From contig OZ250186.1 in assembly GCA_965238275.1 (NCBI GenBank), positions 1,504,001 to 1,568,000 of the forward strand: DNA of 64,000 nt, written 5' to 3'. This document shows, one piece after another, positions 7,035 to 38,853 of the stretch; the stretch's first letter is position 1, and each line of letters opens with the position of its first letter. Source of the stretch: Nitrosopumilus sp. GTDB lineage: Archaea; Thermoproteota; Nitrososphaeria; Nitrososphaerales; Nitrosopumilaceae. Below the pieces are notes generated by a model. That model was not told where the DNA came from and searched no databases. It worked only from the letters and a program-made list of their open reading frames with translations. The translations under genes and the position numbers were made by a program.

Positions 7035-7071
7035 TAGAATGGATTCCGGACTGGCTGTATTTATTCTTGCG

Positions 7072-8337
7072 CTAATTCGGACCAGGCCTTGCCTGCAGCA
7101 CGATTGTAACATCAATAGTCTGGCCGTCCCTTAGAATTCCCAAAACCATCTCGTCTCCTACCGTCTTTATCCTCTGAAGGTGTATCAGGATGTCATCGAT
7201 CTTTCTGACATCGGTCCCGTCCACCGATAATATGACATCCCCGCCTACATGATAGTCTGTCCCGTCGACCTGGATGATCTCGTCTGAACCCCCGAGCCCC
7301 CCATTGTATGCAGGACTGTCCTCCACGACAGTTACAATCAGAAATCCTATGGACTCCTCCAGTCCTAAAACGTCGGCCAAATCCGGATAGATGTCGGTTC
7401 CGGAGATTCCGACCCACGGGTGCCTGTACTCCCCGGTCTCAATCAGTATGGGTATTATCTTTTTGATGGTCTGTGACGGAATTGCAAATCCCACGCCTGT
7501 AAATTCTCCTGTGGCAGACTGGATTGCAGTGTTGATCCCAACAGTCTCCCCCATCATGTTCAAAAGCGGACCGCCGGAATTCCCGGGATTGATTGCAGTG
7601 TCTGTCTGGATTACATCCGGTATGGAGTATCCCGTGTTTGACGGAAGGAGCCTTCCCAGCTGGCTTATTATCCCTGCCGTCATTGATCCTGACAGGCCAA
7701 ACGGATTTCCTATGGCCGCCACTGACTCCCCCACGCGGAGACTGGATGAGTTGCCAAGCACCAGCGGATGCAGAAGCGATGCGTCTGCGTCCACCCTGAC
7801 TACTGCAACGTCGGCAGACTCGTCTGCCCCTATGATCTCTGCCTTGTATGATCTTCCGTCCAGAAACGTGACTACCACCTTTTGTGCGTCCTGGACTACG
7901 TGTGCATTGGTTATGACATGCCCCTTCTTGTCAAAGACGAATCCTGATCCTACAGTCCGCCCTTCGTTATCCATGATCACCCTCTCCACATTGACCCTGA
8001 CCACTCCTGGTTCTGCCCTCTCAAATATCTCCATTAGGGAGAAGACCTCCATTGGGGAATCCGATGCAGCCCCTGAGAGAATGCCTTCCATGGATTCACC
8101 CTGCTGCCCTGACAGGGCAGACACCTTCTCTGACAGGACAGATACCCTCTCTGACAGGGCAGACACTGCCTCTAGCGTCTGCTGTTCTGTCCCATCACCT
8201 CCTCCTCCTCCTGCAAGACCGGCAGTATCTGCCGGAGTGACTACTACCTCTGCAGGCGTGATGAAGGGCACTGATACGATTGCAGCTGCTATTATTGCAC
8301 CAACTATCACAACGGTTAGCTGGTTTGAGACGCTCAT
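7072..8337 (-). CDS. htrA: HtrA/DegP-type serine protease with PDZ domain and N-terminal membrane anchor
   Basis: GSGF, TNAHVV, IQTDTAINPGNSGGPL, C-terminal PDZ-like GDVILSVDG; hydrophobic N-terminus. Confidence 0.93.
   Translation of the reverse strand: MSVSNQLTVVIVGAIIAAAIVSVPFITPAEVVVTPADTAGLAGGGGGDGTEQQTLEAVSALSERVSVLSEKVSALSGQQGESMEGILSGAASDSPMEVFSLMEIFERAEPGVVRVNVERVIMDNEGRTVGSGFVFDKKGHVITNAHVVQDAQKVVVTFLDGRSYKAEIIGADESADVAVVRVDADASLLHPLVLGNSSSLRVGESVAAIGNPFGLSGSMTAGIISQLGRLLPSNTGYSIPDVIQTDTAINPGNSGGPLLNMMGETVGINTAIQSATGEFTGVGFAIPSQTIKKIIPILIETGEYRHPWVGISGTDIYPDLADVLGLEESIGFLIVTVVEDSPAYNGGLGGSDEIIQVDGTDYHVGGDVILSVDGTDVRKIDDILIHLQRIKTVGDEMVLGILRDGQTIDVTIVLQARPGPN
8109..8166. repeat. 21-bp in-frame tandem repeat (about 2.8 copies) inside htrA
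   Basis: CTGACAGGGCAGACACCTTCT / CTGACAGGACAGATACCCTCT / CTGACAGGGCAGACAC, encoding VSALSER-VSVLSEK-VSALS heptads. Confidence 0.8.
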
Positions 8338-8490
8338 GTGGTCTCTGGATCAGTTTTCTATCTAAAAGGCTTATGTTCCTGGATTTTTGACAGGCGCCCT
8401 GGTCAAAATTATACCCTGAATCATGTATGCCGTGAACAAACAGACACGCTTACCTGCACATGTGGGTGCAGACAGGATCTGCCATAATTT

Positions 8491-9705
8491 CTAGATGCGC
8501 ACTCCTGACTGTGCCTGGCTGTGATCCGTCTTGGAGTAGCTTCTTCCCCTCCATGTTACAGAAGACGACTTGTTTGCCTGGAGCAGGCCGCTTAGGAACC
8601 CCAGCGTGACTACCAGCCCGCCTAAAGGCGCAGACAGCGCATAGACGGATCTCAGTCCGAGTCCGACCCTTGTCTCGACCAGCGCCCCGATGTGGACTAG
8701 CAGGGATGCGGCTCCTGCGACTGCACACAGCACGCCTGCTGATGTGGTGTCCGGCATGGATGCCACTGACGCAACGAATACCGGAAACGGCACAAACAGC
8801 AAAAATGTGACTGCGACAAATGCCCCCACTGCCATCCATCCGTTCTGAAGATACAGGGGAACCATCAGCCTCTTCAGGGCGTTCCACAGCGTGCCCCTGT
8901 CCCTGGCCCAGATTGCCTCTATTAGGTGCTCCCCCCTTACCATCCTTATACTGTGTCCCATCTCCTTTGCCTTTCTGCCAAGGGCACCGTCCTCGATTAT
9001 CTCCTGCCTTACCCCCTCGTGTGTCCCTATGCTTTCGTAGGTTTTCCTCCAAAGTATGAAAAAGCTTCCAAAAAAGTAGCCTGTCTTCTTTGCCGGATTG
9101 TTTACATTCAATGCAGAAAACCGGGTATGCAGAAACGTCGAGATCATCGGGAGTGTGATCCTAGTCCAGACATCCCGCGTCAGCATCCTTGGAATTACAG
9201 ACAGGGCATCCAGGTCAGACGAGATTAGATGGGCCACTGCCATCGATATCACCTTCTTGGAGTGTCTTGTGTCTGCATCCGTAAACAGCAAAAGATCCCC
9301 TGTGGCCTTTCTGTACCCTTCCATGCATGCCCAGTTCTTTCCCATCCACCCCTCGGGCTTGGGCCTTGCAGAGACCGGAACCACATTGGGGTATCTCTGC
9401 GCAAACTCTGAGATTATGCCCCATGTGCCATCCTCAGACGAGTCGTCGATTACAACTATTTCGTAGTCCTCATAATCCTGAATGGCAAGGGACTCCAGAC
9501 ACCTTCCGACAAATCCCTCCTCGTTTCTTGCAGGAATTATTACAGATACCCGGGGGCGTGACTTTGACGTGTCTGTAAACCTGTCAAGGTACGGGGTCAG
9601 CCTGAATGAATTCATCATTGATTTGATGAGGAATACCCATGCCCCGCACACCCCAACAAGAATCGCGGCCAGCAAATAGTTGAGGATGTCAGCTACCGGA
9701 TCCAT
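8491..9705 (-). CDS. Membrane glycosyltransferase family 2
   Basis: VSVIIPARNEE, DDSSEDGT, GWMGKNWAC, LLFTDAD and IIEDGALG; transmembrane segments at both ends. Confidence 0.9.
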   Translation of the reverse strand: MDPVADILNYLLAAILVGVCGAWVFLIKSMMNSFRLTPYLDRFTDTSKSRPRVSVIIPARNEEGFVGRCLESLAIQDYEDYEIVVIDDSSEDGTWGIISEFAQRYPNVVPVSARPKPEGWMGKNWACMEGYRKATGDLLLFTDADTRHSKKVISMAVAHLISSDLDALSVIPRMLTRDVWTRITLPMISTFLHTRFSALNVNNPAKKTGYFFGSFFILWRKTYESIGTHEGVRQEIIEDGALGRKAKEMGHSIRMVRGEHLIEAIWARDRGTLWNALKRLMVPLYLQNGWMAVGAFVAVTFLLFVPFPVFVASVASMPDTTSAGVLCAVAGAASLLVHIGALVETRVGLGLRSVYALSAPLGGLVVTLGFLSGLLQANKSSSVTWRGRSYSKTDHSQAQSGVRI

Positions 9706-9708
9706 GAA

Positions 9709-10125
9709 TCATCCCTCGACTTCGGCCTTGATGCTGTGCATGGCCTGTTCGGTCCCGCTCTTGATGTGGCTTTTAATCATGCCTGTAAACATCCCCATCA
9801 TGCCTGTCAGCCTTATGTTCCATGTGGTGCGGAGTACGGTGTTGTCGCCTCTTGGCACCAGCAGTATCGTCTTGTCCCCGTCAATGATGCCCTTGACGAA
9901 TCTTGCCTCGATCCTCTCCTTGGGGTACATTTGGACATCCTGCAGGCATTTTTGATCCCTGAATGCGATCGTAATCTCCCTGTGAATCTTGTTTTTCTCC
10001 CTGGATATGTTTCTGATCTCCTTTGTCCCCTTCCAAAATCTTGGCTCAGAGTCCACATCCGAGACTATCTCCCACACTGCATCGGGTGTGGCGTTGATCT
10101 CCACTTCGACGTCAATTGTGACCAT
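9709..10125 (-). CDS. SRPBCC/START (polyketide cyclase-like) ligand-binding protein
   Basis: VEINATPDAVWEIVSD..P.FW signature; 138 aa. Confidence 0.85.
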   Translation of the reverse strand: MVTIDVEVEINATPDAVWEIVSDVDSEPRFWKGTKEIRNISREKNKIHREITIAFRDQKCLQDVQMYPKERIEARFVKGIIDGDKTILLVPRGDNTVLRTTWNIRLTGMMGMFTGMIKSHIKSGTEQAMHSIKAEVEG

Positions 10126-16655: not shown

Positions 16656-16971
16656 TTTTGCATTAATTTTGTATCAAAAATGCTGTTCCTGTACGGGATC
16701 CAAGTGCTGCTCTTGTACAAAACGGCATCAAATCAGCAGCAGCCCCAAACGCCTCTAGCCAGCCTGTCACAAGCATCCTGTGAACTAGCCCTGTCCCGGG
16801 ATCTTTTTGCCGCATCAGGCAAGATGGTGCCATAGACGAGTCTGGTTGGGGGATACATCATGAGACATGAATCCGACCGTACAATACACTGCTTCGGGAG
16901 AATCGCCGAAACCGTGTACTTATAACTCGCTATTTTCAAAACGGGTTGTTGGTACTGGAGAGGTTTCAATT

Positions 16972-19900
16972 TTGAATCAATCTAAGATTTTTCTGGTTAT
17001 TTTGGCAATCAGCATGATTTCAATTGCATCCCATGACGCTTTTGCTACGCCGCCTTCTCCTCCTCCAGGATTTACGCAAATGGAGATATCTGAACTTCCA
17101 GTACTGGGCCAGGAGTTTGATCTTACCATTTCTCCCATACCTGATAATTATGATAAAGACTGGATACAATCTTCTGATGAAAAAACATGGCCGACAGAAT
17201 TTACAATCATCCTGCCAAAAGGCTTTGAAATTATTGATGATGATTTTTCTGACGGCCGACCTTATTATGGCATGCATGGCCAGGTTTCTGATGATTATCG
17301 TTTTTTTTCTGTTGTTAGGGATGTTGGATTTCCTCCCCAAACAACGGTGACAATCAAGCCAACAGAACCCGGTATTTGGCAAATTATTGCTACAAGTGGC
17401 CCATTCATATCTGGAAAAATATTCGTGACACTGACTGAAAGCTATTCGTATGTTTCTGACAAACCAAACAATGTTGTAAAAAGAGACACGTGTGGCAAAG
17501 ATTTGGATGGCCGGTATGACCGTATATCCATGTTTGATGTTGCATCAAACTCGATAATAAGAAATGTAAAAAATGATTTTATGGCGGAGGAATCTTATAA
17601 TGACTGGAAAATAATCACAAATCCCGCTACCGATCTTATTTACATCTATGAGCATTACACCACCATAGTCCCAATCATATATGGAAATTCTGGCGAGACA
17701 AAAGAGAATCTGACTCTATACGGCCCAAGATCCAGCGTGAGAGTGTCGGATATTGCCATAAATCCTGAAACAAACCTGATCTATATGGGGGACAATGGAA
17801 GAGTAAGTGGAAAGAGTGATGGCAGGATTCTGGTGCTGGACGGGGAAAACCATTCGATTATTTCAATAATAGAATATTATGACAGATCAGGTGAGGATGA
17901 ATATGTTAAATCAATCACTGTAGATCCAAAAACCAATACTTTGTATGCCATGACAGGCGAAAATAGTCTGTATGTGATTGATCTTGATACAGAAGAAGTT
18001 GTTACAAAACTTCATTTGGGCGAGGGCGGATACTCTGGAACCCATGATGTTGAGGTAAATTCGGAAACCAACAAAATCTACGCATTGAATGGCGAGTTGT
18101 ATGTGATAGACGGGCACACAAACGCTGTTGAGCATGCCATACCCGTTGACAATTGGGCAGACAAAATCCAGGTCAACGAGAGGGACAATGAAATCTATCT
18201 CCTAATCTATTCCACCGAGAAACTGCTGATAATTGATGGAACTGATCATCAGATAGACACAATAAATCTGCATCGCCCTGGACTCGATATGGATTTTGAT
18301 CACGTACATGGCAAACTGTATGTTCCAAACGAGGGTGGTTCAGTAACCGTAATCGACACCGACGCGCTTGAATTTGACATAATGGATGACTGCAGCTTTA
18401 TTTCGCGCATTTCCATAAATCCCGGAACCGGAGTTTTGTCTGCAGTGGATGAATCGCAATCCGTTACTGTAAACGTAATCGAAGACGTAAAACCACACCA
18501 AAATGATCGTATGTGGGTTGATGATTCAGAATATCCGAGAACAGAGTATTTGTCAGACGAGCAGATATCCTTCAGACTATCCAATATGGGCGATGCCGAT
18601 ATTGCAGTCGACTCTGTAAGGATAAAAAACACCAATACCGGAAATGTGGCCGTCACACTTACGGAATCGCAGACAATCGAGCAAAACGGGTTCATTGAGA
18701 TTATGTGGGACCAAACTGATTCGAACGGAAAACGGGTTCCGCTTGATCGTTATGCTCTGATTATGAAGGGCCATGATGATGAAGATGCCATTTACGAGGC
18801 ACACAAACTATTCTCAACCATAGACAAAGACAGGCTGGATCGTCTCAAATCGCTGCACAAAGACATGTTTTCCTATATAAAATCAAACGAAAGCAATTCT
18901 GAAGAGACCACCGCGCCGCCCGCATCCGATGATTCGGCACCTGCAAACACGGCTGATGATTTGACGGCCGGGCAGCCACAACCTGACATTCCAGATGACG
19001 TTGCATGTAAAAACAATCCCGTGCTTATGACCCGGAACTATGAAAAATTCATATGCGTCAAATTTACCACGTCTGAAACACTTGTCATGCGCGGATGGGA
19101 GATCGTTTCCACAGAACCCACTCCGGCTGTTCCTAGCGACACCTCGGAGAACATCACTGTGCCAAAGCACGACATCATGCCTGATTTTCCGTTGTCCAGC
19201 GAATTCACAGGTAATATCTTTGCAAGATTCAATGTAGAATTTTCTCAAAGACCTGTTTTGAATGAGGAATTTGACATTACTATAAAATATGAAATTTTTG
19301 ACAATGAGTCTTCTAATAAAAAACCCCGCAAGACAGTTCCCTTTACTCTTACATTAGGCGAAGGGATGGAGTACGTGGGCGGAGACATGAACAAAATTGC
19401 AAGAAAATACAGCCTTGTTACCGAGCAATACAACACAATGTACAAGGCAGAAAACCCGAGTACTGTTCCTGGCATCTACGAATCCACCTCCATCATAAAA
19501 TTCTCGCAGCCCGGAGAACATTATTTTGGATTACATGTCTCAGGCCAATTTGATGGGTTTTGGTTTTTTGTAGATGACGGTGGAACGGTATACCTGAAAG
19601 AGGACGTCATTTATGACTCCAGTGCGCTGTCACAGCTAATGCATATCTTGACTGCTAACTACCCGGAATCCATTGAAGACGAATTAGAAACCATCTTTGG
19701 CAGTAATGCAAAACGAGTTTTGGAGGACTATTATGAGTATTATGAGTATCAAAGACCGATTGCCCCTGTGGACCTGCTTACAACTAAGGTGCAACTGCAG
19801 GATGTGGTATGTTCAGGCGGCATATTTTACAAGTTTACCCAGAGTGAATGGGGAGGGCACGGCATGCAGTGTGGTTCAGAGTCCACGTTGGAATATAATT

Positions 19901-21177
19901 CCGAAAGGTCACGTGAAGTTGAAGTCTATGATCGCAATGAAGCAATAAAAGCACTTACAATCAACACGGATTCTGTCGCCATGTCTGAAAAAAACATATT
20001 TTTTGATACCCGAGACAATGACTATGATGATGGCTGGTTTCCATCACGTCAGTCAGCACATAAAGATAAGGCAGTGTTGCCTCCTCCCTACCATTATCTC
20101 GGGGAGCCGTGCTCGAACGATGCATTGTATGCCACGTTTGAGGCTCCCGAGCAGGTAAATGTAGGGGATGCATTTGATGTCGTGCTTACGTATAGCTGGA
20201 CGGTGCCAAACCCGAACTGGGATGTGATGTCTGAAGATGATAAGAAAACGATGCAAAATCTACGCGATGAATATCTTCCACTGGTGGAGGCAGAGGAAAT
20301 GGCAAACAGCGGCGGCGGCCATGCAACTCTTACTGAGCCGGAATTGGACGATCTTGGTGCTCAAATGGATGCATTACTTGATCGGATGGCGAAAATCTTG
20401 GACAAATATGGGTTGGAAGACCATGATTCCAACATATACGGATACCAGATAACAGAATACTATCCGGAATGCAAGGAACCCATTCTGAACATTGCATTTC
20501 CAGAAGAGCTGGAAATACTTTCAGACGGATTTGAAATATCTGGCAGCCCGGACCAGCACAAGATTGTAAACTATCGAGGGGAAAAAACGCTGTCCTTCAG
20601 CAATGATCAGCCCCAAACATACATCCTTACTATGATTGCAAACGAACCTACATTCCATCTGGTCAATTCATTGAGAATCAACGCTGCTGGATATGGTGCA
20701 AATTTTGTTTTTAGTGTCAACAACGGCACAGTTACCTTTACCCATAACTATCCTGATTATTTGGAACGATTAGCCCACACACCTCAAATTGACAAGTTTG
20801 GAAATAAAATACCAAGGCACGAACAGAGTGGTGGGGGATATTCTCTCAATAGCGTATTGTTTGAGTATTCCCAACTCCATGGCCTGAGTGTTGATAAGAC
20901 AAGACAATTACAGCTTGAGTTTCTGAAACACCAGGTGCTAAACCCTGATGATGATTTTACTACATTTTACAAGATTTTTTCTGGCACGGATATCTCAGAT
21001 GAGATCGATTATGTAAGTCTAGGGCCGCCAATGGATAGTTTTGCAGAATTCGCCAGGGAACACATTTTACAGGATGAAGACGATATTGAGGCATGGCTTT
21101 ATTCCATAGATGACTTGCATGATGACTGGATCGAGGCGTTTCTGGCAAAATATCCGGAATTTAAAAATGAAACGTAG
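16972..21177 (+). CDS. Large secreted or surface mosaic protein: YVTN/YncE-like beta-propeller plus Ig-like modules
   Basis: Signal peptide (TTG start, ...IFLVILAISMISIASHDAFA). Propeller blades DIAINPETNLIY, SITVDPKTNTLY, DVEVNSETNKIY, KIQVNERDNEIY, DMDFDHVHGKLY. FlgD-like WDQTDSNGKRVP. Visibly AT-richer than the flanks. Confidence 0.85.
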   Translation: MNQSKIFLVILAISMISIASHDAFATPPSPPPGFTQMEISELPVLGQEFDLTISPIPDNYDKDWIQSSDEKTWPTEFTIILPKGFEIIDDDFSDGRPYYGMHGQVSDDYRFFSVVRDVGFPPQTTVTIKPTEPGIWQIIATSGPFISGKIFVTLTESYSYVSDKPNNVVKRDTCGKDLDGRYDRISMFDVASNSIIRNVKNDFMAEESYNDWKIITNPATDLIYIYEHYTTIVPIIYGNSGETKENLTLYGPRSSVRVSDIAINPETNLIYMGDNGRVSGKSDGRILVLDGENHSIISIIEYYDRSGEDEYVKSITVDPKTNTLYAMTGENSLYVIDLDTEEVVTKLHLGEGGYSGTHDVEVNSETNKIYALNGELYVIDGHTNAVEHAIPVDNWADKIQVNERDNEIYLLIYSTEKLLIIDGTDHQIDTINLHRPGLDMDFDHVHGKLYVPNEGGSVTVIDTDALEFDIMDDCSFISRISINPGTGVLSAVDESQSVTVNVIEDVKPHQNDRMWVDDSEYPRTEYLSDEQISFRLSNMGDADIAVDSVRIKNTNTGNVAVTLTESQTIEQNGFIEIMWDQTDSNGKRVPLDRYALIMKGHDDEDAIYEAHKLFSTIDKDRLDRLKSLHKDMFSYIKSNESNSEETTAPPASDDSAPANTADDLTAGQPQPDIPDDVACKNNPVLMTRNYEKFICVKFTTSETLVMRGWEIVSTEPTPAVPSDTSENITVPKHDIMPDFPLSSEFTGNIFARFNVEFSQRPVLNEEFDITIKYEIFDNESSNKKPRKTVPFTLTLGEGMEYVGGDMNKIARKYSLVTEQYNTMYKAENPSTVPGIYESTSIIKFSQPGEHYFGLHVSGQFDGFWFFVDDGGTVYLKEDVIYDSSALSQLMHILTANYPESIEDELETIFGSNAKRVLEDYYEYYEYQRPIAPVDLLTTKVQLQDVVCSGGIFYKFTQSEWGGHGMQCGSESTLEYNSERSREVEVYDRNEAIKALTINTDSVAMSEKNIFFDTRDNDYDDGWFPSRQSAHKDKAVLPPPYHYLGEPCSNDALYATFEAPEQVNVGDAFDVVLTYSWTVPNPNWDVMSEDDKKTMQNLRDEYLPLVEAEEMANSGGGHATLTEPELDDLGAQMDALLDRMAKILDKYGLEDHDSNIYGYQITEYYPECKEPILNIAFPEELEILSDGFEISGSPDQHKIVNYRGEKTLSFSNDQPQTYILTMIANEPTFHLVNSLRINAAGYGANFVFSVNNGTVTFTHNYPDYLERLAHTPQIDKFGNKIPRHEQSGGGYSLNSVLFEYSQLHGLSVDKTRQLQLEFLKHQVLNPDDDFTTFYKIFSGTDISDEIDYVSLGPPMDSFAEFAREHILQDEDDIEAWLYSIDDLHDDWIEAFLAKYPEFKNET

Positions 21178-29461: not shown

Positions 29462-30304
29462 TTAATTTGGATTGCTATTGACCAAAGTGCGCGCAAACAC
29501 GTATGGCGTGTCGTCTGGCTCGTCAAACGTCCATGCCGTGGGCAGGGAGATGGTCCGGATCAGTTCGAGGCCGTTTTCGTCAATGAATGTGCCCCACCCG
29601 GCCTCGTTTTTGGGATCCGGCCGGTACTTTTGGGAGCATGTCCCTGCAAACACCCATCCTGCATCCACACGACCAGGCATCCCCCTCATCACCCCGGCGG
29701 CAAGATCACTTCCGCCCATCTGCGCAAGTCCGCCGATAAAGAATGCGGGCCTCTCCAGATCCAGTGCCGAGTAGTCAAAGGATGCAGCATCCGAGCAGAA
29801 TGGATGAAAGTCAAGTATGTCCGAGGGACTATTCTGTATTCCGACTAACATCTCATCGACATCTATGCTGTAGGATTCCATGCCTGCAACCCTGCCGCAG
29901 AACGCTATCCTGCCATCCCCGGACCCGACATCAACCACCTGGCCGTAGCCAAGTTCCCTTACAAACAGCGAGCCTACGTATGCAGACATCATCCATGTAG
30001 GGGAGAACGGGGCGTGACTGGAGTCGTGCTGAATGCTGTTGAGCCAGTACCTGTTGATGTCCCCCTCATAGACAGTGCACGGGGTATCCCCGACTGTCTT
30101 TTCAAACGAGTTGTAATAGATTGGATTGCTCCCGGCGAATCGGTGCAGTAATTCCAGATCATGGCTGCCCATTGGAAACCGTTCGGATTTTGATGTCGGG
30201 ATGACCTCTTGGATGTGGCCTGCCCCGTCATACTCCTCTGCAAACTCTCTTTTTAGAACTGCAAGGTTCTTTGCAAGATGATCAACTAGACAGTCCCTTC
30301 TCAT
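29462..30304 (-). CDS. Hypothetical protein with class I SAM-methyltransferase-like motif
   Basis: VVDVGSGDGRIA motif I and SIDVDE motif II; start uncertain. Confidence 0.7.
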   Translation of the reverse strand: MRRDCLVDHLAKNLAVLKREFAEEYDGAGHIQEVIPTSKSERFPMGSHDLELLHRFAGSNPIYYNSFEKTVGDTPCTVYEGDINRYWLNSIQHDSSHAPFSPTWMMSAYVGSLFVRELGYGQVVDVGSGDGRIAFCGRVAGMESYSIDVDEMLVGIQNSPSDILDFHPFCSDAASFDYSALDLERPAFFIGGLAQMGGSDLAAGVMRGMPGRVDAGWVFAGTCSQKYRPDPKNEAGWGTFIDENGLELIRTISLPTAWTFDEPDDTPYVFARTLVNSNPN

Positions 30305-30698
30305 ACTGTCCTACAAACTCCCGGGTGCTCATCATTTGACGCAGATTCTCGTACGCTGCGGACATGTCAGTATTGTTCCCCGTATCCTGGGACTGAAGGT
30401 TGTTGGTGGATTCGGTGATCAGGTCGGCAAGGTTTGCCTGAATTCTGGGATGGATGTCAGAATTGAACCTCTCAGAAATTATTGATTCGGCATGGGTGAT
30501 CATGTCCAGCAGCTGCCTGTGTTTGTCGGGGTCAATCTGCTGCCTGAGCATGAGGGCCATTGAGGATACGTTGATGACCTGATAGTAGATCTCCACAATC
30601 TCAGAAACAGGCAGGTCGGTGACCGCTGCGTTGCTGATCAGGCCTTCCAGCTTGTCCGATTCTGCATGAAACATTCTAGAGACATCTTCGTGATTCAT
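30282..30698 (-). CDS. Hypothetical helical protein
   Basis: IVEIYYQVINV and YENLRQMMSTREFVGQY; start reassigned to ATG 30698. Confidence 0.7.
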   Translation of the reverse strand: MNHEDVSRMFHAESDKLEGLISNAAVTDLPVSEIVEIYYQVINVSSMALMLRQQIDPDKHRQLLDMITHAESIISERFNSDIHPRIQANLADLITESTNNLQSQDTGNNTDMSAAYENLRQMMSTREFVGQYEKGLSS

Positions 30699-30741
30699 GC
30701 TGCCAGGCACCCAGAAATTGTTAAAAACGTTGGCATCCGGG

Positions 30742-31446
30742 CTATGCTTCCTTTTCTGCTGGCTTGACAAAGACGTAGTTCATTATCAGGCCCGCTATGA
30801 TTCCGCCCAGGATTGGCGCTGCCCAGTACAGCCAGTGAAATTCCCAGAATCCTGAGATCAGTGCAGGACCAAACGTCCTTGCGGGGTTTACCGATGCGCC
30901 AGTCAGCGGAACTGCAATCAGGTGAATAAGGAACACCATTCCGCCTATGGTGATTCCGTGCAGGCCCGGCGATGCCTTCTTGTGGACTGCGCTCATAAAG
31001 ATTACAGTCACCAGGAAGAATGTCAGTATCGCCTCTACTGCGAATCCGGATGCGATGCTGCCGTTGATCAGTTCGCTTGGGCCGCCCTGCGTTCCAAAGT
31101 TGACTTTGGCGCCAAGCTCCGGCAGGATCGCCATGAGGGTGGCCGCTGCGGCTACTGCGCCAACCAGCTGTGAGGCGATGTAGCCGATTCCGTCGGCGAT
31201 CCCGATTCGCCTGGTAATCATCATGGGTATTGTAACTGCCGGATTGATGTGTGCTCCAGAGACGTGTCCAAACGCATAGATCATCAGGGCAATGGCCCCT
31301 CCGTGCCCAAGGGATATGAACAGTACAGACTGCGTAGTTAACTCCTCGCCAAAGGATGCAATTGCAAGTATGACTGAAAGCGGGCCAAAGAACACCAGCC
31401 CGTAAGTTGAGATTGCCTCTGCAAGATAGGCCCTTGGGTTAACCAT
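30742..31446 (-). CDS. Aquaporin (MIP family)
   Basis: SGAHINPAVT and GASVNPARTFGP (two NPA motifs). Confidence 0.96.
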   Translation of the reverse strand: MVNPRAYLAEAISTYGLVFFGPLSVILAIASFGEELTTQSVLFISLGHGGAIALMIYAFGHVSGAHINPAVTIPMMITRRIGIADGIGYIASQLVGAVAAAATLMAILPELGAKVNFGTQGGPSELINGSIASGFAVEAILTFFLVTVIFMSAVHKKASPGLHGITIGGMVFLIHLIAVPLTGASVNPARTFGPALISGFWEFHWLYWAAPILGGIIAGLIMNYVFVKPAEKEA

Positions 31447-31639
31447 CAGAATGTAATCGCTTCAAGTTTCCATATAAAAGATTCGAATAATGTGGGATGC
31501 CCATATTTTTGGCCAGAATCACCGCAGGGACGGTAATCCGGGCGCCTGGCAGATTCAATGGGTGGCATGAGGTATTTTTGCATAAAACACGGCACAGACC
31601 ATCAAAAGGTAATTATTTGTGGGGCCGGTGCCCTACCAC

Positions 31640-32104
31640 ATGGTTTCTGAAGGAGACACGGTTCCTGAATTTGAGCTGAATGATGCAGACGGCAACGCCG
31701 TCAAATCTACAGATCTGAACGGAAGAAAACACGTAATCTACTTTTATCCGAAGGACTTTACTCCCGGGTGTACGACCCAGGCCGACGAGTTTTCAAGAGA
31801 TTATGAACTGTTCCGGAAAGAGGGAATTGACATAATTGGAATCAGCCCGGATGATACAAAATCCCACAAAAAATTCTGTGACAAGAGGGGAATCCGGTAT
31901 ACGCTCCTGTCGGATGTCGAAAAGGAGGTCTCAACCAGGTTTGGCGTATGGGGCAAGAAGAAGTTTATGGGCAGGGAGTACATGGGGGTGATGAGAAGCA
32001 CGTTTCTTGTAAATGGCGATGGAAGAATATTTAAGATTTATTCAAAAGTAAAGCCTGCCGGCCATTCAAAATTGGTACTAGATGATTTTCTAAATTCGAA
32101 ATAA
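31640..32104 (+). CDS. bcp: Peroxiredoxin (BCP/PrxQ)
   Basis: YFYPKDFTPGCTTQA, GISPD and RSTFLV. Confidence 0.95.
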   Translation: MVSEGDTVPEFELNDADGNAVKSTDLNGRKHVIYFYPKDFTPGCTTQADEFSRDYELFRKEGIDIIGISPDDTKSHKKFCDKRGIRYTLLSDVEKEVSTRFGVWGKKKFMGREYMGVMRSTFLVNGDGRIFKIYSKVKPAGHSKLVLDDFLNSK

Positions 32105-32238
32105 TGCGGTTCCTTATGATTGTGAAAAATTGCCAGACGCATGGGACATACGGGCCGTAGCCCAAAATGATACAAAATAATTTCCAGACACAGGCATTGA
32201 ATGTTTTACTTGTATAAATAAAAGAAATGGTAGATGGT

Positions 32239-33564
32239 TTAGAAGCCTTTTGGAAGCGTGCCTCGGGAGGCTTTTGGTGGTTCTGGTTCAGGTTCTGGTG
32301 CAAACCCCTTGGGTAGAACGCCACGGCTCTTCTTGGCACTAGCTGCTGCTGCAGCAGCAGCCTCATCTTGCAGTGCTTTCTGATATGCCTGTTCTGCTTC
32401 AATTCTGTCTTGCTCGATTCTTTTGAGGTATCTGCTTTCATAATCCTCCAGTCGCTCTTGTCTCGATTTCGAGCTATTGTCGCTATAGCTTGCCTGCTGT
32501 GGGGGTGGAGCCTGCTGTGGGGGTGGAGCCTGCTGTGCTTGCTCTGGTTCCGGTGCCTGTGTGGTAGTGCCGCCTTCAAAACTCATACTCACGCCACTAA
32601 ATGTCCCAAATGTCTTGTCGGGAGGGTGATATGCCAGTCGTGGTCTTGTTGCAAAGTACTGGTTGGATGGTTGCGTATAGCCTGTAACCTTGGCCTTTTG
32701 ATCGTTCCAGTTGGTTGTCGGAACGCTTCCCACAGGTGCAGTCAGCCGTACATAGTATCGGTTCGGAGACGGTGAGTATCCGGTCACCTTTGTCCTGTAT
32801 TGGTGGAAGTCAGTCTGTGGGGTTGCATAGTATGCATCCTCCAATGCGGCATTGAATGTTGCCGGTGGTGGGGATTTTGTTTCTGTAGGCTTTGGTGCCT
32901 CTTGGGGCTTTGGCTTGCCAAATCCCTTTGGAAGTGTTCCCTTGGGCTTGACAGTCTCTGCTGGCTTTGGTGCCTCTTGGGGCTTTGGTGCCTCTTGGGG
33001 CTTTGGCTTGCCAAATCCCTTTGGAAGTGTTCCCTTGGGCTTGACAGTCTCTGCTGGCTTTGGTGCCTCTTGGGGCTTTGGTGCCTCTTGGGGCTTTGGC
33101 TTGCCAAATCCCTTTGGAAGTGTTCCCTTGGGCTTGACAGTCTCTGCTGGCTTTGGTGCCTCTTGGGGCTTTGGCTTGCCAAATCCCTTTGGAAGTGTTC
33201 CCTTGGGCTTGACAGTCTCTGCTGGCTTTGGTGCCTCTTGGGGCTTTGGTGCCTCTACCTTGGCAGGCACCTTTCGTGGCCTGCCTCTCGGTCTTGGAGT
33301 CTTTGGTGCATCAGTAGTTACCTTTCGTGGCCTGCCTCTCGGTCTTGGAGTCTTTGGTGCATCAGTAGTTACCTTTCGTGGCCTGCCTCTCGGTCTTGGA
33401 GTCTTTGGTGCATCAGTAGTTACCTTTCGTGGCCTGCCTCTCGGTCTTGGAGTCTTTGGTGCATCTGTACTGGCAGGCACCTTTCGTGGCCTGCCTCTCG
33501 GTCTTTTAGATCCAGTCTGTGATGTCTTTGGCTTTTCGCTTGAACTTGCGTTGTCATTTGCCAT
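32239..33564 (-). CDS. Disordered repeat protein A: 5 AT-hooks, LPKGF repeats, conserved KVTGY domain
   Basis: PRGRPRK x5; PKGTLPKGF x4 plus two C-terminal variants; Pro/Lys-rich; no signal peptide or TM. Confidence 0.88.
   Translation of the reverse strand: MANDNASSSEKPKTSQTGSKRPRGRPRKVPASTDAPKTPRPRGRPRKVTTDAPKTPRPRGRPRKVTTDAPKTPRPRGRPRKVTTDAPKTPRPRGRPRKVPAKVEAPKPQEAPKPAETVKPKGTLPKGFGKPKPQEAPKPAETVKPKGTLPKGFGKPKPQEAPKPQEAPKPAETVKPKGTLPKGFGKPKPQEAPKPQEAPKPAETVKPKGTLPKGFGKPKPQEAPKPTETKSPPPATFNAALEDAYYATPQTDFHQYRTKVTGYSPSPNRYYVRLTAPVGSVPTTNWNDQKAKVTGYTQPSNQYFATRPRLAYHPPDKTFGTFSGVSMSFEGGTTTQAPEPEQAQQAPPPQQAPPPQQASYSDNSSKSRQERLEDYESRYLKRIEQDRIEAEQAYQKALQDEAAAAAAASAKKSRGVLPKGFAPEPEPEPPKASRGTLPKGF
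32886..33505. repeat. Nested in-frame tandem repeats in gene A (51-bp AT-hook unit, 75/93-bp LPKGF unit, 18-bp KPQEAP unit)
   Basis: CTTTCGTGGCCTGCCTCTCGG at 33271, 33322, 33373, 33424 and 33481; AAATCCCTTTGGAAGTGTTCCCTTGGGCTTG x4. Confidence 0.92.
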
Positions 33565-33701
33565 TCCTTACAGTAAATACAGCACTGTTTATTTACATTT
33601 TGATTAGTGCGTACCCTGATTCAAATTAATTCATAAAATTAGACAAAAATTTGTAAAAATTTTATTGCCCTGCGATCGAGGCTTCAAGGGAGATCTGTGA
33701 G

Positions 33702-33902
33702 TCAATCAGGTTCCCAAAATGCCATTACATACATGCAGTTATTGCATCGCCAGAGATTTACATGAATTCCGTTGTCGGTGTCTGCAACGTATTTTCCCTC
33801 ATCAGTCCGGCTTACCTTGGGCAGGTAACTCAATTCGGGGCTCTGTAGCCATTCCTTTTGTTGGCAATTGGGACACGTGATATTTGGAGGCATAAATGAC
33901 AT
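33702..33902 (-). CDS. Small zinc-ribbon protein (CPNC...CNNC)
   Basis: 66 aa with two CxxC knuckles; lies between the two repeat-protein genes on the same strand. Confidence 0.8.
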   Translation of the reverse strand: MSFMPPNITCPNCQQKEWLQSPELSYLPKVSRTDEGKYVADTDNGIHVNLWRCNNCMYVMAFWEPD

Positions 33903-33952
33903 ACGCAGTAATCAAAAAAAACATTTCTATGAAAAAGAGAAGAATTGTGAGG

Positions 33953-35221
33953 TTAGAAACCTTTTGGAAGCTTGCCCTTTGCGGGTTTTGGTTCCGATGC
34001 CTGCTCTGCCTGTGTGGTAGTGCCGCCTTCAAAACTCATACTCACGCCACTAAATGTCCCAAATGTCTTGTCGGGAGGGTGATATGCCAGTCGTGCCCTT
34101 GTTGCAAAGTACTGGTTGGATGGCTGCGTATAGCCTGTAACCTCGGCCTTTTGATCGTTCCAGTTGGTTGTCGGAACGCTTCCCACAGGTGCAGTCAGTC
34201 GCGTATAGTATCGGTTCGGAGACGGTGAGTATCCGGTCACCTTTGTCCTGTATTGATGGAAGTCAGTCTGTGGGGTTGCATAGTATGCATCCTCCAATGC
34301 GGCATTGAATGTTGCCGGTGGTTGGGATTTTGTTTCTGCAGGCTTTGGTACCTCCTGAGGTTTTGGCGCCTCTTGGGGCTTTGGCGTGTCAAATCCCTTT
34401 GGAAGTGTTCCCTTGGGCTTGGCAGTCTCTGCAGGCTTTGGTGCCTCCTGAGGTTTTGGTGCCTCTTGGGGCTTTGGCGTGTCAAATCCCTTTGGAAGTG
34501 TTCCCTTGGGCTTGGCAGTCTCTGCAGGCTTTGGCGCCTCCTGAGGTTTTGGTGCCTCTTGGGGCTTTGGCGTGTCAAATCCCTTTGGAAGTGTTCCCTT
34601 GGGCTTGGCAGTCTCTGCAGGCTTTGGCGCCTCTTGAGGTTTTGGTGCCTCTTGAGGTTTTGGTGCCTCTTGGGGCTTTGGCGTGTCAAATCCCTTTGGA
34701 AGTGTTCCCTTGGGCTTGGCAGTCTCTGCTGGCTTTGGCGCCTCCTGAGGTTTTGGTGCCTCTTGGGGCTTTGGCGTGTCAAATCCCTTTGGAAGTGTTC
34801 CCTTGGGCTTGGCAGTCTCTGCTGGCTTTGGTGCCTCTACATTGGCAGGTACCTTTCTTGGTCTGCCTCGTGGCCTTGCTGGCTTTGGCGTCTCTGTACT
34901 GGCAGGTACCTTTCTTGGTCTGCCTCGTGGCCTTGCTGGCTTTGGCGTCTCTGTACTGGCAGGTACCTTTCTTGGTCTGCCTCGTGGCCTTGCTGGCTTT
35001 GGCGTCTCTGTACTGGCAGGTACCTTTCTTGGTCTGCCTCGTGGCCTTGCTGGCTTTGGAGTGTCAAATCCCTTTGGAAGTGTTCCCTTGGGCTTGGCAG
35101 TCTCTGCTGGTTGTTGTTCCGAATCAAGACTTGATTGTATGTCTGCGGTGTAATCGCGTAGTGATGTTTCTAAATCATCAGCTTTGTCGTAATTTTTAGG
35201 CGATTTTTTTGCTGTTTGCAT
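33953..35221 (-). CDS. Disordered repeat protein B: 4 AT-hooks, LPKGF repeats, conserved KVTGY domain (paralog of A)
   Basis: PRGRPRK x4; LPKGF x7 including the C-terminus; ~110-aa domain nearly identical to gene A. Confidence 0.88.
   Translation of the reverse strand: MQTAKKSPKNYDKADDLETSLRDYTADIQSSLDSEQQPAETAKPKGTLPKGFDTPKPARPRGRPRKVPASTETPKPARPRGRPRKVPASTETPKPARPRGRPRKVPASTETPKPARPRGRPRKVPANVEAPKPAETAKPKGTLPKGFDTPKPQEAPKPQEAPKPAETAKPKGTLPKGFDTPKPQEAPKPQEAPKPQEAPKPAETAKPKGTLPKGFDTPKPQEAPKPQEAPKPAETAKPKGTLPKGFDTPKPQEAPKPQEAPKPAETAKPKGTLPKGFDTPKPQEAPKPQEVPKPAETKSQPPATFNAALEDAYYATPQTDFHQYRTKVTGYSPSPNRYYTRLTAPVGSVPTTNWNDQKAEVTGYTQPSNQYFATRARLAYHPPDKTFGTFSGVSMSFEGGTTTQAEQASEPKPAKGKLPKGF
34340..35110. 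repeat. Nested in-frame tandem repeats in gene B (57-bp AT-hook unit, ~93-bp LPKGF unit)
   Basis: GGCAGGTACCTTTCTTGGTCTGCCTCGTGGCCTTGCTGGCTTTGG x4; GTGTCAAATCCCTTTGGAAGTGTTCCC x6. Confidence 0.92.
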
Positions 35222-35775
35222 TGCTCTGAGTGAATGATCTGGGGTTTATGTATATTTGGGTTATCGTGGAGACCCTGGCACAGATGTCTGTGCACAAAAT
35301 GCCTTCAAAAGGAGAATCAGCTATTGGCAAGCAGACTGGGAGAAATGCCATGGCGAGAAATGCCATGGCTTGTGGGGGAAATTATTTCTCGTACGCCTGA
35401 ATCGTCATGGATGTCAAAATTTGAATAAATGGTGGGTTTTTTTGATTCATTGCGACCCGTACGTGTTTTGGGCATATCCTGCAAACACAGATTCATATCT
35501 TGACCACGCGGGTTCGGTCTTTTCAAAACGTAGCAATCAAAAACATGACACGTGTCATTGGCACGGTATGGCATGCGCCCCAGCATTGTCCGTGTAGCCA
35601 AATTCTGGCAGCCGCATATGGGGGATTGGCGTCACAATGTCGAATCTTTATTGTGGCTGGAGCATGATTCGCAGCAGGCAACCAAGCATGAAACAGGCGG
35701 CCTTGGTTTGATGGGACAGGAAACACCCGAATCTCAACATGATCAAGTTTTATATGCATAGGATGCTTATGGTGT

Positions 35776-36153
35776 TTGATGGATGACTTTGAAAAGGACT
35801 TTCCGGATTTTGACTGGAAGAACGTACCTGCATACGAACATCCCGGAGGCAAGGACTGCCCATGCCCAAAGCACGAATACATCCGGGAACAGATCAATTT
35901 TACAAAACAGGTAAATGAAAAAGGCAAGGAACCATCCAAGATCACGCTCAGATTTTGTCCTGATCACTACCGGGTCTACATGGATGAGGTTATTCCTGCA
36001 ATGCCTCTGAAATACAAGCTGCTGACAAAGATAGCCCTGAGGATTGGCGCAATCCAGGTGGAGCAGTTAAAGTATATGGAATCCGGACTCTGCTTTTATT
36101 GCAAGTTTGGATCCGGAGGACACGACAAAAAGACAGAACTGCCCCCGATGTAG
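35776..36153 (+). CDS. Hypothetical Cys/His-rich (zinc-binding-like) protein
   Basis: CPCPKH, CPDH and CFYC motifs; TTTTATA box upstream. Confidence 0.75.
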   Translation: MMDDFEKDFPDFDWKNVPAYEHPGGKDCPCPKHEYIREQINFTKQVNEKGKEPSKITLRFCPDHYRVYMDEVIPAMPLKYKLLTKIALRIGAIQVEQLKYMESGLCFYCKFGSGGHDKKTELPPM

Positions 36154-36297
36154 GGCAGGCATGCAAGAGTCTTCTGACAATATGGCTGCTGACAAAAGGG
36201 CATGACTGAGGCCGTCTACGGGACCAGTCCTGGGTGCCACGCACACACACGCTCTGAATCCAGTTAAGCTTATACCCAAACCGGCACCATACCCATC

Positions 36298-37740
36298 ATG
36301 CCGATAAAAGACATTCACGAGCTCATCTCAGAGTTGGAAGGATGCGGGGAGCTGAAGCGAGTCAAGGCAAGTGTTGATGCAGACCTTGAGGTTGCAGAGA
36401 TTATGAGGCGGGAGATGTACCGTGGGGGTCCGGCGATCCTGTTTGAGAATGTAAAAGGATATGACATGCCAATACTTGGAAACACGTTTGGTTCCATGAA
36501 GCGGCTGGAGATCGGACTCGGAATGACGGATTTTACCGAGATTGGCAGGCGCATAGTGGAGATGACAAGGATGAGCGTCCCATCGGGACTTTTGGGCAAG
36601 CTAAGAAAGCTTCCGGAGCTCTCAAAGATGGCAGCAGTGTTTCCCAAAAACGAGACAAGCGGGCCGGTATCTGAGGTCGTGTCTGCAGAGCCGTCATTTG
36701 ATGGGATTCCAATCATAAAGTCGTGGCCGGGAGATGCAGGAAGATTCATCACGCTGGGACTGGTTGCCACAGTGCATCCTGAGACGGGGGTTAGAAACCT
36801 GGGCGTGTTTAGGATGCAGATTATAGACAGCACCCATGCCCTGATGCACTGGCAGAGACACAAGAGGGGGGCCCACCACGGCGAGATCTCAAGGGACCGG
36901 GGGGAGAAAATACCTGCTGCCATAATCATAGGCGGGGATCCTGCAACCGTCTTTTCGGCAATTGCGCCTGTTCCAGAGGGGCTGGACAAGTATCTGTTTG
37001 CAGGAATTACAAGAAAGGAGGGAATCAGTACGGTACGGTGCAAGACAGTTGATCTGGATGTTCCTGCAAACGCAGAGATTGTCATGGAGGGATATGTCGA
37101 TCCTGCGGATCTCAGGGACGAGGGGCCTTTTGGAGATCATACCGGATACTACACGCCAGTCGAGCCATACCCGGTATTCACGCTTACAGGAGTCATGCAC
37201 AGGAGGCATCCGGTGTACGTGACTACCGTGGTGGGAAAGCCGGTTCTGGAGGATGCATACATTGGAAAGGTAATCGAGCAGTCGTTCCTGCCGCTGATCA
37301 GGATGTTTCATCCCGAGGTGGCAGATTTCAGCATGCCGGCAGCAGGATGGTTTCAGGGACTGGCAGTCGTGTCGATTCTGAAGAGATACCCGGGTCAGGC
37401 AAAGAAGGTAATGATGGGCCTGTGGGGCATGGGACAGCTCTCCCTTACAAAGACGCTTGTGGTAGTCGACGAGGACATCAACGTCCACGATATGAACGAT
37501 GTCATATGGGCAGTGACGACGAGGGCGGATCCTGCAAGGGATACGACGATCATTGCCGACACGCCTACCGACACCCTTGATCCGGCATCCCCGCTTGTCA
37601 ATCTGGGCTCTAAGATGGGCATCGATGCAACGCAGAAGACAAGCGAGGAGGGATACCAGAGGGAGATTCAGCAGAAGGTGGGGGCAGACGAGAAGACAAG
37701 GAGCATGGTTGATTCCAGATGGCGCGAATACGGGCTATGA
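36298..37740 (+). CDS. ubiD: UbiD-family decarboxylase (menaquinone/futalosine pathway)
   Basis: RNLGVFRMQ, EGPFGDHTGYY, VVVDEDINVHD and DTLDPA...GSKMGIDAT. Confidence 0.93.
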   Translation: MPIKDIHELISELEGCGELKRVKASVDADLEVAEIMRREMYRGGPAILFENVKGYDMPILGNTFGSMKRLEIGLGMTDFTEIGRRIVEMTRMSVPSGLLGKLRKLPELSKMAAVFPKNETSGPVSEVVSAEPSFDGIPIIKSWPGDAGRFITLGLVATVHPETGVRNLGVFRMQIIDSTHALMHWQRHKRGAHHGEISRDRGEKIPAAIIIGGDPATVFSAIAPVPEGLDKYLFAGITRKEGISTVRCKTVDLDVPANAEIVMEGYVDPADLRDEGPFGDHTGYYTPVEPYPVFTLTGVMHRRHPVYVTTVVGKPVLEDAYIGKVIEQSFLPLIRMFHPEVADFSMPAAGWFQGLAVVSILKRYPGQAKKVMMGLWGMGQLSLTKTLVVVDEDINVHDMNDVIWAVTTRADPARDTTIIADTPTDTLDPASPLVNLGSKMGIDATQKTSEEGYQREIQQKVGADEKTRSMVDSRWREYGL

Positions 37741-38853
37741 TGTCAGGACGGGATTGTAAAAGTTGTCCCGCTCCTCTACGGTGTATCCAATCTGACGTAT
37801 GGCCTCTGCTATGGTGCTGCCGGTAAGCTCAGTAGAGCGGGCCCCCGTGCAGGATACGACCTCCTCGCCGATGAGCGTTCCGCCAAAGTCATCTGCGCCA
37901 TACTGCAAGGCAAGCTGGGCCATTCCGACCCCGTTTGTAAGCCAGGAGGACTGGATGTGCGGGATTGAGTCATCAAAGATCAGCCTGGATATGGCAATCA
38001 TCTTTAGCAGCTGAATGCCGCCGGTTCCGTGCTTGACGGTCCCATCCTGCTGCATCAGCGTGTTGTTTGGCTCGAAATTCCATGGAATAAACGCCATAAA
38101 GCCGCCTGTCCGTTCCTGCAGTCTTGTTATCTTCATAAAGTGCTCTGCAATGTCTGCGTTATTCTCCACATGCCCGTACATCATCGTCGCAGAGGCCGGC
38201 AGTCCGATGGAGTGCGCCTCGCCCATGATCCTAATCCAGTCGTCGCTTGCAATCTTCTTTGGGCTGATGATGTCCTTTACAGAGTCGACTAGTATCTCTG
38301 CCCCGGCTCCGGGAACCGACTGCAGCCCAGAGTCCTTGAGCCGGGAAAGAACCTCCAGGGTAGAGGATTTTTCAACCTTTGCAATCATGTCGATCTCTGA
38401 TGCGGACAGTCCGTGAAGGCCCACCATCGGAAACTTTTTGCGGATCATCCTGAATGCGTCCTCGTAATACTCTATTCTCAGGTTGGGATTGTGTCCGCCC
38501 TGGATCAGAACCTGGCGTATCCTGAACATGTCCCATGCCGCACTCACCCTGGATTCAATCTGATCAAGACTCAGCGTGTAGGACTCGTCGTCCCCGGGCG
38601 ACCGGTAGAACGCACAGAACTTGCAGTCTGTAACACAGACATTGGTATAGTTTAGGATTATGTTGCTTACAAATGACGCCTTTCTTCCAAACCGCCTTCT
38701 TGCAAGCTGCCCGGAGACAAGCCCCATGAGATGAACCTCGTCAGACTCCAGAAGCCTCATGCAGTCATCGTACCCCGGCCTGCATCCGTTAAGCGAGTTG
38801 TCCAGAATGTCACCGACGCCGCTGTTTTTTATGTACTCTACGGCTTGGCTCAT
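37735..38853 (-). CDS. mqnC: CofH/MqnC-family radical SAM, probably cyclic dehypoxanthine futalosine synthase
   Basis: NYTNVCVTDCKFCAFY, QGGHNP, PGAGAEIL, ATMMYGH, AFIPW and GADDFG; convergent with ubiD; cofH is encoded separately. Confidence 0.8.
   Translation of the reverse strand: MSQAVEYIKNSGVGDILDNSLNGCRPGYDDCMRLLESDEVHLMGLVSGQLARRRFGRKASFVSNIILNYTNVCVTDCKFCAFYRSPGDDESYTLSLDQIESRVSAAWDMFRIRQVLIQGGHNPNLRIEYYEDAFRMIRKKFPMVGLHGLSASEIDMIAKVEKSSTLEVLSRLKDSGLQSVPGAGAEILVDSVKDIISPKKIASDDWIRIMGEAHSIGLPASATMMYGHVENNADIAEHFMKITRLQERTGGFMAFIPWNFEPNNTLMQQDGTVKHGTGGIQLLKMIAISRLIFDDSIPHIQSSWLTNGVGMAQLALQYGADDFGGTLIGEEVVSCTGARSTELTGSTIAEAIRQIGYTVEERDNFYNPVLTS

Follow-up and report, generated by a model that had tools for sequence, protein, structure and literature searches.

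The window analyzed here is a stretch of 64,000 bp from the genome of an archaeal Nitrosopumilus sp. (GenBank assembly GCA_965238275.1, contig OZ250186.1, forward-strand positions 1,504,001 to 1,568,000), and the locus of interest, at positions 32239-35221, contains two tandem paralogs that carry arrays of AT-hook motifs, with a small zinc-ribbon gene between them. All three genes lie on the minus strand. The long paralog, 32239-33564(-), encodes 441 amino acids (aa), the short paralog, 33953-35221(-), encodes 422 aa, and the zinc-ribbon gene, 33702-33902(-), encodes 66 aa (63 aa if translation begins at the second Met) with a CPNC...CNNC pattern; upstream of every one of these genes the intergenic DNA is rich in adenine and thymine (AT). 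The arrays are a real and selected gain of canonical AT-hooks, confined to one clade, by a widespread and undescribed archaeal scaffold family; from them we infer that the proteins bind DNA with a preference for AT.

Perfect copies of PRGRPRK occur at residues 22, 41, 58, 75 and 92 of the long protein (n=5; spacings of 19, 17, 17 and 17 residues) and at residues 60, 79, 98 and 117 of the short protein (n=4; spacings of 19, 19 and 19). KTPR precedes the units of the long paralog and KPAR those of the short one, and all nine contain RPRGRPRK, such that the central GRP is flanked by Arg or Lys on both sides as in the AT-hook core. Both proteins pass the cut-off of the Pfam AT_hook model PF02178 (17.4 bits), with 20.1 bits for the long paralog and 22.4 bits for the short, four and three stretches being scored respectively. 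In 20,000 composition-preserving shuffles of each protein the mean RGRP count is 0.029 (long) and 0.014 (short), and at least two copies arise in only 4 and 1 of them. The whole window genome, designated G000, spans 2,216,668 bp and contains 23,166 stop-to-stop frames of 50 aa or longer, and these two proteins are the only ones among them with more than one [RK]GRP[RK]. A frame with twelve RGRP copies at genome positions 1263915-1268516(-) is no hook protein, as it comes from reading a giant tandem-repeat gene in the wrong frame. That gene, which lies outside the window, and many dispersed identical frames of 61 aa and 154 aa suggest that insertion-sequence-like repeats are abundant in this genome.

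The hook copies are tandem duplicates at the DNA level. The array of the long paralog (five units; 33269-33505, minus strand) has a 51-bp period with 4.5 copies and 95% matches, and that of the short paralog (four units; 34820-35059, minus strand) has a 57-bp period with 4.2 copies and 97% matches. The copies are thus not independent events, and what has to be explained is the origin and the retention of one unit.

The remainder of each protein is similarly modular. In the long paralog 20 residues precede the five hooks, which are followed by four KPKGTLPKGF units set in PKPQEA-type Pro/Lys/Glu linkers (32888-33249, minus strand; 93-bp and 75-bp DNA periods, 100% matches), a conserved region of 107 aa (32557-32877, minus strand) that abounds in Tyr, Asn, Gln, Pro and Thr, contains two VTGY half-repeats and has no Pfam match, and a tail specific to the long form (32242-32510, minus strand) consisting of a Gln/Pro (QQAPPP) linker, a helical segment, GVLPKGF and a terminal GTLPKGF, the last seven residues of the protein. 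The short paralog begins with an acidic degenerate helix and one GTLPKGF, continues with its four hooks and five further GTLPKGF units (GTLPKGF-unit array at 34335-34838, minus strand; 93-, 111- and 204-bp DNA periods), and ends with a conserved region (34010-34330, minus strand), which shares 96% identity with its counterpart in the long paralog, and a C-terminal GKLPKGF. The GTLPKGF units, like the hooks, ride on DNA repeats, with 97-100% matches. The proteins have isoelectric points (pI) of 10.3 (long) and 9.9 (short) with 18-19% Pro and 12-13% Lys, and neither has a signal peptide or a membrane helix, the highest 19-residue Kyte-Doolittle means being 0.17 and 0.13 respectively. The first-pass annotation, made from the letters of the window, had described two co-oriented, Pro/Lys-rich paralogs lacking signal peptides or transmembrane segments, with five and four PRGRPRK motifs at 17-19-aa spacing, several of them preceded by TPR or KPAR, on either side of a zinc-ribbon gene, and each of these particulars holds.

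A search with the conserved region returns 654 proteins at E<=0.001, and the best 120 of these were characterized. Their source labels include 'trans-sialidase', 'hypothetical protein' and 'DUF4332 domain-containing protein', in agreement with the first-pass annotation, which assigned the C-terminal region to an uncharacterized family often labelled trans-sialidase automatically. That name is a low-complexity artefact of automatic labelling, as there is no sialidase or BNR match in Pfam, and a literature search for 'trans-sialidase' with Nitrosopumilus returned no paper. Among the best 120 of 654 relatives the C-terminus is LPKGF in 117, LPKGY in one and aberrant in two, and both window proteins conform, ending in G-x-L-P-K-G-F. 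Within the taxonomic family to which the window belongs, 93 of 121 genomes have a family match, in 24 of 27 genera (a tally that includes the unpublished G093). In a class-wide sample a match is present in 74 of 80 genomes of that taxonomic family (including the unpublished G077) versus none of the 70 from eleven sister families, and the profile search scores the two window genes at E values of 5e-52 and 9e-52. Searched with a profile, a set of 1.84 billion representatives yields only 106 proteins at E<=0.001. No Pfam domain is matched at E<=1e-5 in 81 of the 82 best representatives, and the lone exception looks like a chimeric fragment; ESM Atlas gave no usable match, and PHROGs gave none for either the family region or the zinc ribbon.

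The conserved region of about 105 aa has invariant G, P, R, W, Q, K, G-Y-T, S, Y, A-T, A, P and F columns, to which the window proteins conform, and that of the window is 46-96% identical to those of 26 relatives. A typical member starts with a short Lys/Arg-rich N-terminus that leads into a helix with Leu or Ile at strict +4/+3 spacing over three heptads, which from its sequence we read as a putative basic-zipper-like head, and continues with a long Pro/Lys/Glu linker containing zero to five GTLPKGF units, the conserved region and the same C-terminal peptide. In some lineages, and in many of the representatives, the N-terminal tail before the zipper is expanded into long Lys/Arg/Thr-rich repeats. 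Two relatives (P0024 and P0098) have instead an N-terminal DUF4332 domain (132-143 bits) and HHH_5 (27-42 bits), overlapping other helix-hairpin-helix (HhH) families; none of the longer fused forms (773-2205 aa) scored, which is weak evidence. Together with the hook arrays these arrangements indirectly suggest that the family body may take three heads of nucleic-acid type: basic-zipper-like, HhH and AT-hook.

Two sorting or docking signals were considered for the GTLPKGF peptide and rejected. As an archaeosortase PGF-type sorting signal, it lacks the membrane helix that should follow the peptide. As an ESCRT MIM2 peptide, the core of which is given in an excerpt of PMC8970359 as phi-P-x-phi-P, it fails at the last position of L-P-K-G-F, which is Phe and not Pro. 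A role of the whole protein as a cell-envelope spacer, a TonB-like Pro/Lys/Glu rod in which the hooks are incidental, is very unlikely: the linkers do resemble the wall-binding EntB and EntC models of NCBIfam (35.3 and 28.1 bits), the only matches in that database, but these are low-complexity similarities far under the cut-offs of 780 and 770, signal peptides and membrane segments are lacking, and the HhH and AT-hook fusions accord better with a protein of the cytoplasm that faces DNA.

Genes of the family generally come as a tandem pair of long and short paralogs, and the conserved regions of tandem paralogs within a genome are often identical, which indicates gene conversion. One locus (L038 of genome G038, 5947-10059) has a head-to-tail array of four genes of the family together with three copies of the zinc-ribbon gene that are identical to one another. 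Most of 20 relatives' loci share a neighborhood consisting of an aquaporin, a peroxiredoxin, the family gene or genes, a 125-aa Cys-rich protein, a UbiD-type decarboxylase and a radical S-adenosylmethionine enzyme. The Cys-rich protein is the divergently oriented neighbor of the short paralog in the window (35776-36153(+)), is present with 69-91% identity in 17 of the 20 loci, and has no Pfam or NCBIfam match. Positions 30000-38000 of the window contain no Rfam match at E<=0.1.

Hooks are rare among these relatives. RGRP is absent from 118 of the best 120 of the 654 matches, and none of the 106 representatives from the profile search has hooks, consistent with the first-pass annotation, according to which such proteins are not known to carry them. 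Among the relatives examined, the family members that have arrays are those of G000 (five hooks in the long and four in the short paralog) and of two further genomes, G317 (six and four) and G110 (four and four), where the hooks occupy equal positions and the zinc-ribbon gene again separates the paralogs; the long forms of these two genomes, with a like layout, are 540 aa and 430 aa in length and the short forms 387 aa and 367 aa respectively. Two short metagenome fragments (P0001 and P0002) have two hooks each. A hook-array query matched 5 of 121 genomes at the level of the genus and 6 of 251 at the level of the taxonomic family, counts that include spurious matches in G247 and G061 respectively, neither of which has a hook array on inspection. 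In a tree of two concatenated flanking housekeeping proteins, G000, G317 and G110 group together as one clade (support 100/100) within an 11-row group, and the guanine plus cytosine (GC) content of the locus is 51-55% in this clade versus 33-38% in the other eight genomes of the group. The parsimonious interpretation is a single gain of hooks in the ancestor of the three. The proposal that hooks were added and amplified in one lineage is thus supported by their absence from nearly all of the best 120 relatives and from all 106 representatives, and the finding that would have spoken for neutral repeat expansion, an absence of hooks from sister strains, is not what is seen, with G317 and G110 carrying them in both paralogs.

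Hook arrays also occur in relatives on proteins that do not belong to the family. One genome of the same genus (G312; locus GC ~39%) encodes a 451-aa protein with 15 consecutive hooks (AT_hook 104 bits; L080:6149-7504(+)) and a 310-aa paralog with three (L079:4049-4981(+)); both end in a common stretch of about 200 aa, without a Pfam match and unrelated to the window family, and a search of G000 for the C-terminal domain of the 15-hook protein, run without a positive control, found no homolog. In another genus, proteins of 98-154 aa consist of one N-terminal helix and three to six hooks (L082:1357-1764(+), L083:1492-1788(-) and L084:1300-1764(+) in genomes G100, G018 and G083); theirs is the most HMGA-like layout among these archaea. 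The spacers in all of the non-family hook proteins are Thr-rich with Asp or Glu, as in the window genes, and the unit of hook plus spacer therefore behaves as a module found on at least three architectures. These non-family arrays occur in loci of 39-42% GC.

Codon usage within the arrays bears on whether the hooks are maintained. The units within any one gene share identical or near-identical codons, which indicates concerted evolution. Comparison of the six genes of the clade shows that six of the eight core codons differ, and that all of the differences are synonymous except for one conservative Arg/Lys change in G110; the spacers between the hooks differ at the amino-acid level. The synonymous change in the core, the variable spacers and the retention of hooks in both paralogs of three species argue against a neutral repeat, and in these sequence comparisons point to selection on the hook core as opposed to neutral expansion. 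The contrary explanation is that the arrays are tolerated low-complexity expansions with no role on DNA, or that they bind RNA or another polyanion. The same genes do freely expand GTLPKGF, PKPQEA (a long run in the G317 long form) and QQAPPP (an 18-bp indel between populations), their DNA repeats are 95-100% identical and hence young or homogenized, and the nine window copies stem from very few origin events. We nonetheless regard this explanation as improbable, given that the protein sequence of the core is otherwise held constant across the six genes while its codons change and the adjoining spacers vary, that both paralogs keep their hooks in all three species, and that two further architectures have taken up the hook unit, one of them composed of hardly anything besides a helix and hooks.

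The zinc-ribbon protein is small, acidic (pI 4.8) and well conserved. Among 34 sequences the mean column identity is 77%, C10, C13, C53 and C56 are invariant, and there is a conserved C-terminal FWE(P/H)D; this acidic C-terminus may resemble that of LysW-like amino-group carriers, and a role of that kind would be speculative. The predicted structure has a mean predicted local distance difference test (pLDDT) of 86.3 and five strands, with the two CxxC knuckles and small beta fold of a zinc ribbon. A Foldseek comparison of the model with the PDB gave no match at E<=0.001; the best matches are weak (E>=0.5) and include the zinc-ribbon-type modules of NrdR, MqsA, TFIIS and Rpb9. The gene is present in 26 of the 121 genomes and 9 of the 27 genera. 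Twenty-two genomes have a strong match (E<=1e-30), and in 20 of these it lies within 1.1 kb of a family gene, often between paralogs; in the remaining two, whose assemblies are fragmented, the zinc-ribbon and family genes fall on separate contigs. None of the four weak matches is next to a family gene. In eight other genera the zinc-ribbon gene stands beside family members without hooks, and the companionship therefore predates the hooks: the gene is an old, optional companion of the family, with nothing hook-specific about it. A complex prediction of the zinc ribbon with residues 293-422 of the short paralog, both entered as alignments, scored 0.00 (mark, 0.32), a result with no bearing on binding either way.

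If the hooks do bind AT-rich DNA, predicted targets are present in G000. The genome has a GC content of 52.7%, and only 15 of its 1,108 2-kb windows fall below 44% GC. Tracts composed solely of A and T (W) are concentrated outside crude ORFs (open reading frames): the 23% of the genome that is outside holds 56% of those with W>=8 and 64% of those with W>=10. The analyzed window has a single AT-rich stretch, at 17-21 kb (GC 0.40-0.45), which is filled by a 1,436-aa ORF (16867-21177(+)) with no Pfam match and is possibly an acquired island. The first-pass annotation had placed the hooks in a GC-rich genome with AT-rich islands, a picture that is partly supported: the overall GC content and the higher-GC clade agree with it, but windows of low GC are few, other high-GC relatives lack hooks, and hook arrays on other proteins occur in loci of 39-42% GC.

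These same figures bear on a narrower version of the DNA-binding interpretation, in which the proteins are xenogeneic silencers: as the genome moved to a higher GC content, they would cover AT-rich islands gained by horizontal transfer. The restriction of hook-bearing family members to the higher-GC clade of the genus, the existence of a few such islands, one of them within the window, and the retention in the short paralog of a helix that could oligomerize are all in its favor. Most A/T tracts are located in ordinary non-ORF regions and not in islands, however, the proteins have no silencer-type oligomerization domain recognized by Pfam or NCBIfam, other high-GC relatives do without hooks, and hook arrays are found at GC contents as low as those of the non-family loci just mentioned; silencing of islands is accordingly a doubtful explanation.

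Public sequence reads provide a partial view of the locus in other samples. Contigs assembled from three runs of three studies cover its unique parts, mostly at >=99% identity, as well as hook units. Compared with the assembly, one run is 18 bp shorter at 32492 (32492-32537, within the long paralog's QQAPPP repeat), and each of the three DNA-type runs is 14 bp shorter at 35337 (35337-35369, an intergenic 15-bp duplication). An RNA library labelled as a sponge metagenome yields contigs over 32257-33500 that include hook units, with 8 of 13 contigs at >=99% identity; these are compatible with transcription of the long paralog, of which they are a weak sign, DNA carry-over being possible, and stretches of the neighboring genes that the library leaves uncovered are given no weight. 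The contigs from this library, and the finding that hook arrays occur in genomes that are large for the genus (1.9-2.6 Mb), would suit a eukaryote-like factor of a host-associated archaeon that acts on host chromatin after release. Such a role is highly improbable, as the proteins lack a signal peptide or other secretion signal, are orthologous to a core family that keeps its synteny and occurs in 93 of the 121 related genomes, and carry hooks on both paralogs, beside a conserved zinc-ribbon gene of cytoplasmic type.

The interpretation that we favor, with moderate confidence, is that the hook-bearing proteins are disordered multivalent scaffolds, tethered by the hook array to AT-rich DNA, with the peptides and the conserved region free for contacts with proteins. 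In the ancestor of the three-species, higher-GC clade one hook unit (RPRGRPRK plus a Thr/Asp/Pro spacer) would have entered the N-terminal part of both paralogs and been amplified by tandem duplication to four to six copies, replacing the basic-zipper head in the long paralog and supplementing it in the short one. The hooks would dock in the minor groove of A/T tracts, which are concentrated outside ORFs in this 52.7%-GC genome, so that the scaffold could be held at several points on AT-rich DNA, and the GTLPKGF peptides and the conserved region may engage a partner or each other. In G000 (genome frames scanned) an LPKGF C-terminus is found only in the two window proteins, and with GTLPKGF at the end of no other protein the peptide may have its binding site on the zinc-ribbon protein or on the conserved region of the family itself. 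The scaffold may also affect the structure of the nucleoid or silence genes.

Several observations weigh against this interpretation. The nine hook copies of the window go back to only one or two events of origin, and their number alone is no evidence; moreover, short-read contigs break inside the arrays, so the assembled copy number is provisional. In other relatives of high GC (62-65% at the locus) the family is hook-less, and a GC-driven need to target AT is therefore not general. The Pro/Lys linkers hold about as many Glu as Lys and are not like histone tails. An AlphaFold2 model of the conserved region (46 sequences) has a mean pLDDT of 51.2 and offers no confident fold that would tie the family to DNA; judging from the model, the region may need a partner or be non-globular. 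The HhH-fused forms number only two among the best 120 of 654 relatives. Finally, because GTLPKGF ends no other G000 protein, shared clients provide no partner for a hub.

A broader proposal, which we offer tentatively and think rather less likely than the tethered scaffold, is that these proteins exemplify an undescribed class of DNA-tethered disordered scaffold that organizes the nucleoid, with interchangeable heads (basic-zipper-like, HhH or AT-hook), GTLPKGF arrays that dock a partner or the proteins' own conserved region, and an accessory zinc ribbon; the AT-hook arrays would then be a mobile module attached independently to at least three architectures.

The known archaeal chromatin proteins (histones, Alba and Cren7/Sul7) are folded DNA binders, and tandem AT-hook arrays are a hallmark of eukaryotes with few bacterial cases. 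A literature search at the level of abstracts found no description of AT-hook arrays in ammonia-oxidizing archaea, in Nitrosopumilus or in archaeal chromatin or nucleoid-associated proteins. Here a single archaeal family has such arrays on three architectures that are unrelated to one another, the codons give evidence of selection, and their carrier is a widespread, highly conserved family, with no Pfam entry and an invariant C-terminal peptide, in some of the ocean's most abundant archaea. The hook-bearing variants make the DNA-tethering hypothesis testable in vitro without culturing the organism, and cultivated relatives with the hook-less family open a way to hunting for partners.

Comparison with characterized systems places these proteins at some distance from each of them. 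They share with HMGA a basic-flanked R-G-R-P core that passes the Pfam cut-off and is repeated within a disordered, Pro-rich chain. HMGA is a small protein with about three hooks and an acidic C-terminal tail, whereas the window proteins are archaeal, are 441 and 422 aa in length, and have four or five hooks, an additional conserved region, peptide arrays and a basic GTLPKGF C-terminus; the 98-154-aa helix-plus-hooks proteins of the sister genus are closer to HMGA in layout. In the CarD/CarG system of Myxococcus an AT-hook protein is encoded beside its zinc-binding partner, and the window likewise has an AT-hook-bearing prokaryotic protein next to a zinc-protein gene. The analogy drawn in the first-pass annotation does not survive closer comparison, however, as the window proteins have no CarD_CdnL_TRCF domain (Pfam, E<=1), and the zinc protein here, unlike CarG, is a four-Cys ribbon of 63-66 aa whose pairing with hook-less members in eight other genera is older than the hooks.

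H-NS, Lsr2 and MvaT recognize AT-rich DNA partly by AT-hook-like R-G-R loops and have an oligomerizing part, as described in PMC4466236 and PMC6936261. The window proteins differ from these in having no Pfam or NCBIfam match to their DNA-binding or oligomerization domains, and in that their hooks are canonical linear motifs in tandem as opposed to one loop in a folded domain. The closest relationship is with the archaeal family labelled 'trans-sialidase', of which both proteins are full members by their conserved region, LPKGF end, tandem paralogy and flanking genes, and from which they depart in the replacement (long paralog) or supplementation (short paralog) of the basic-zipper head by arrays of AT-hooks.

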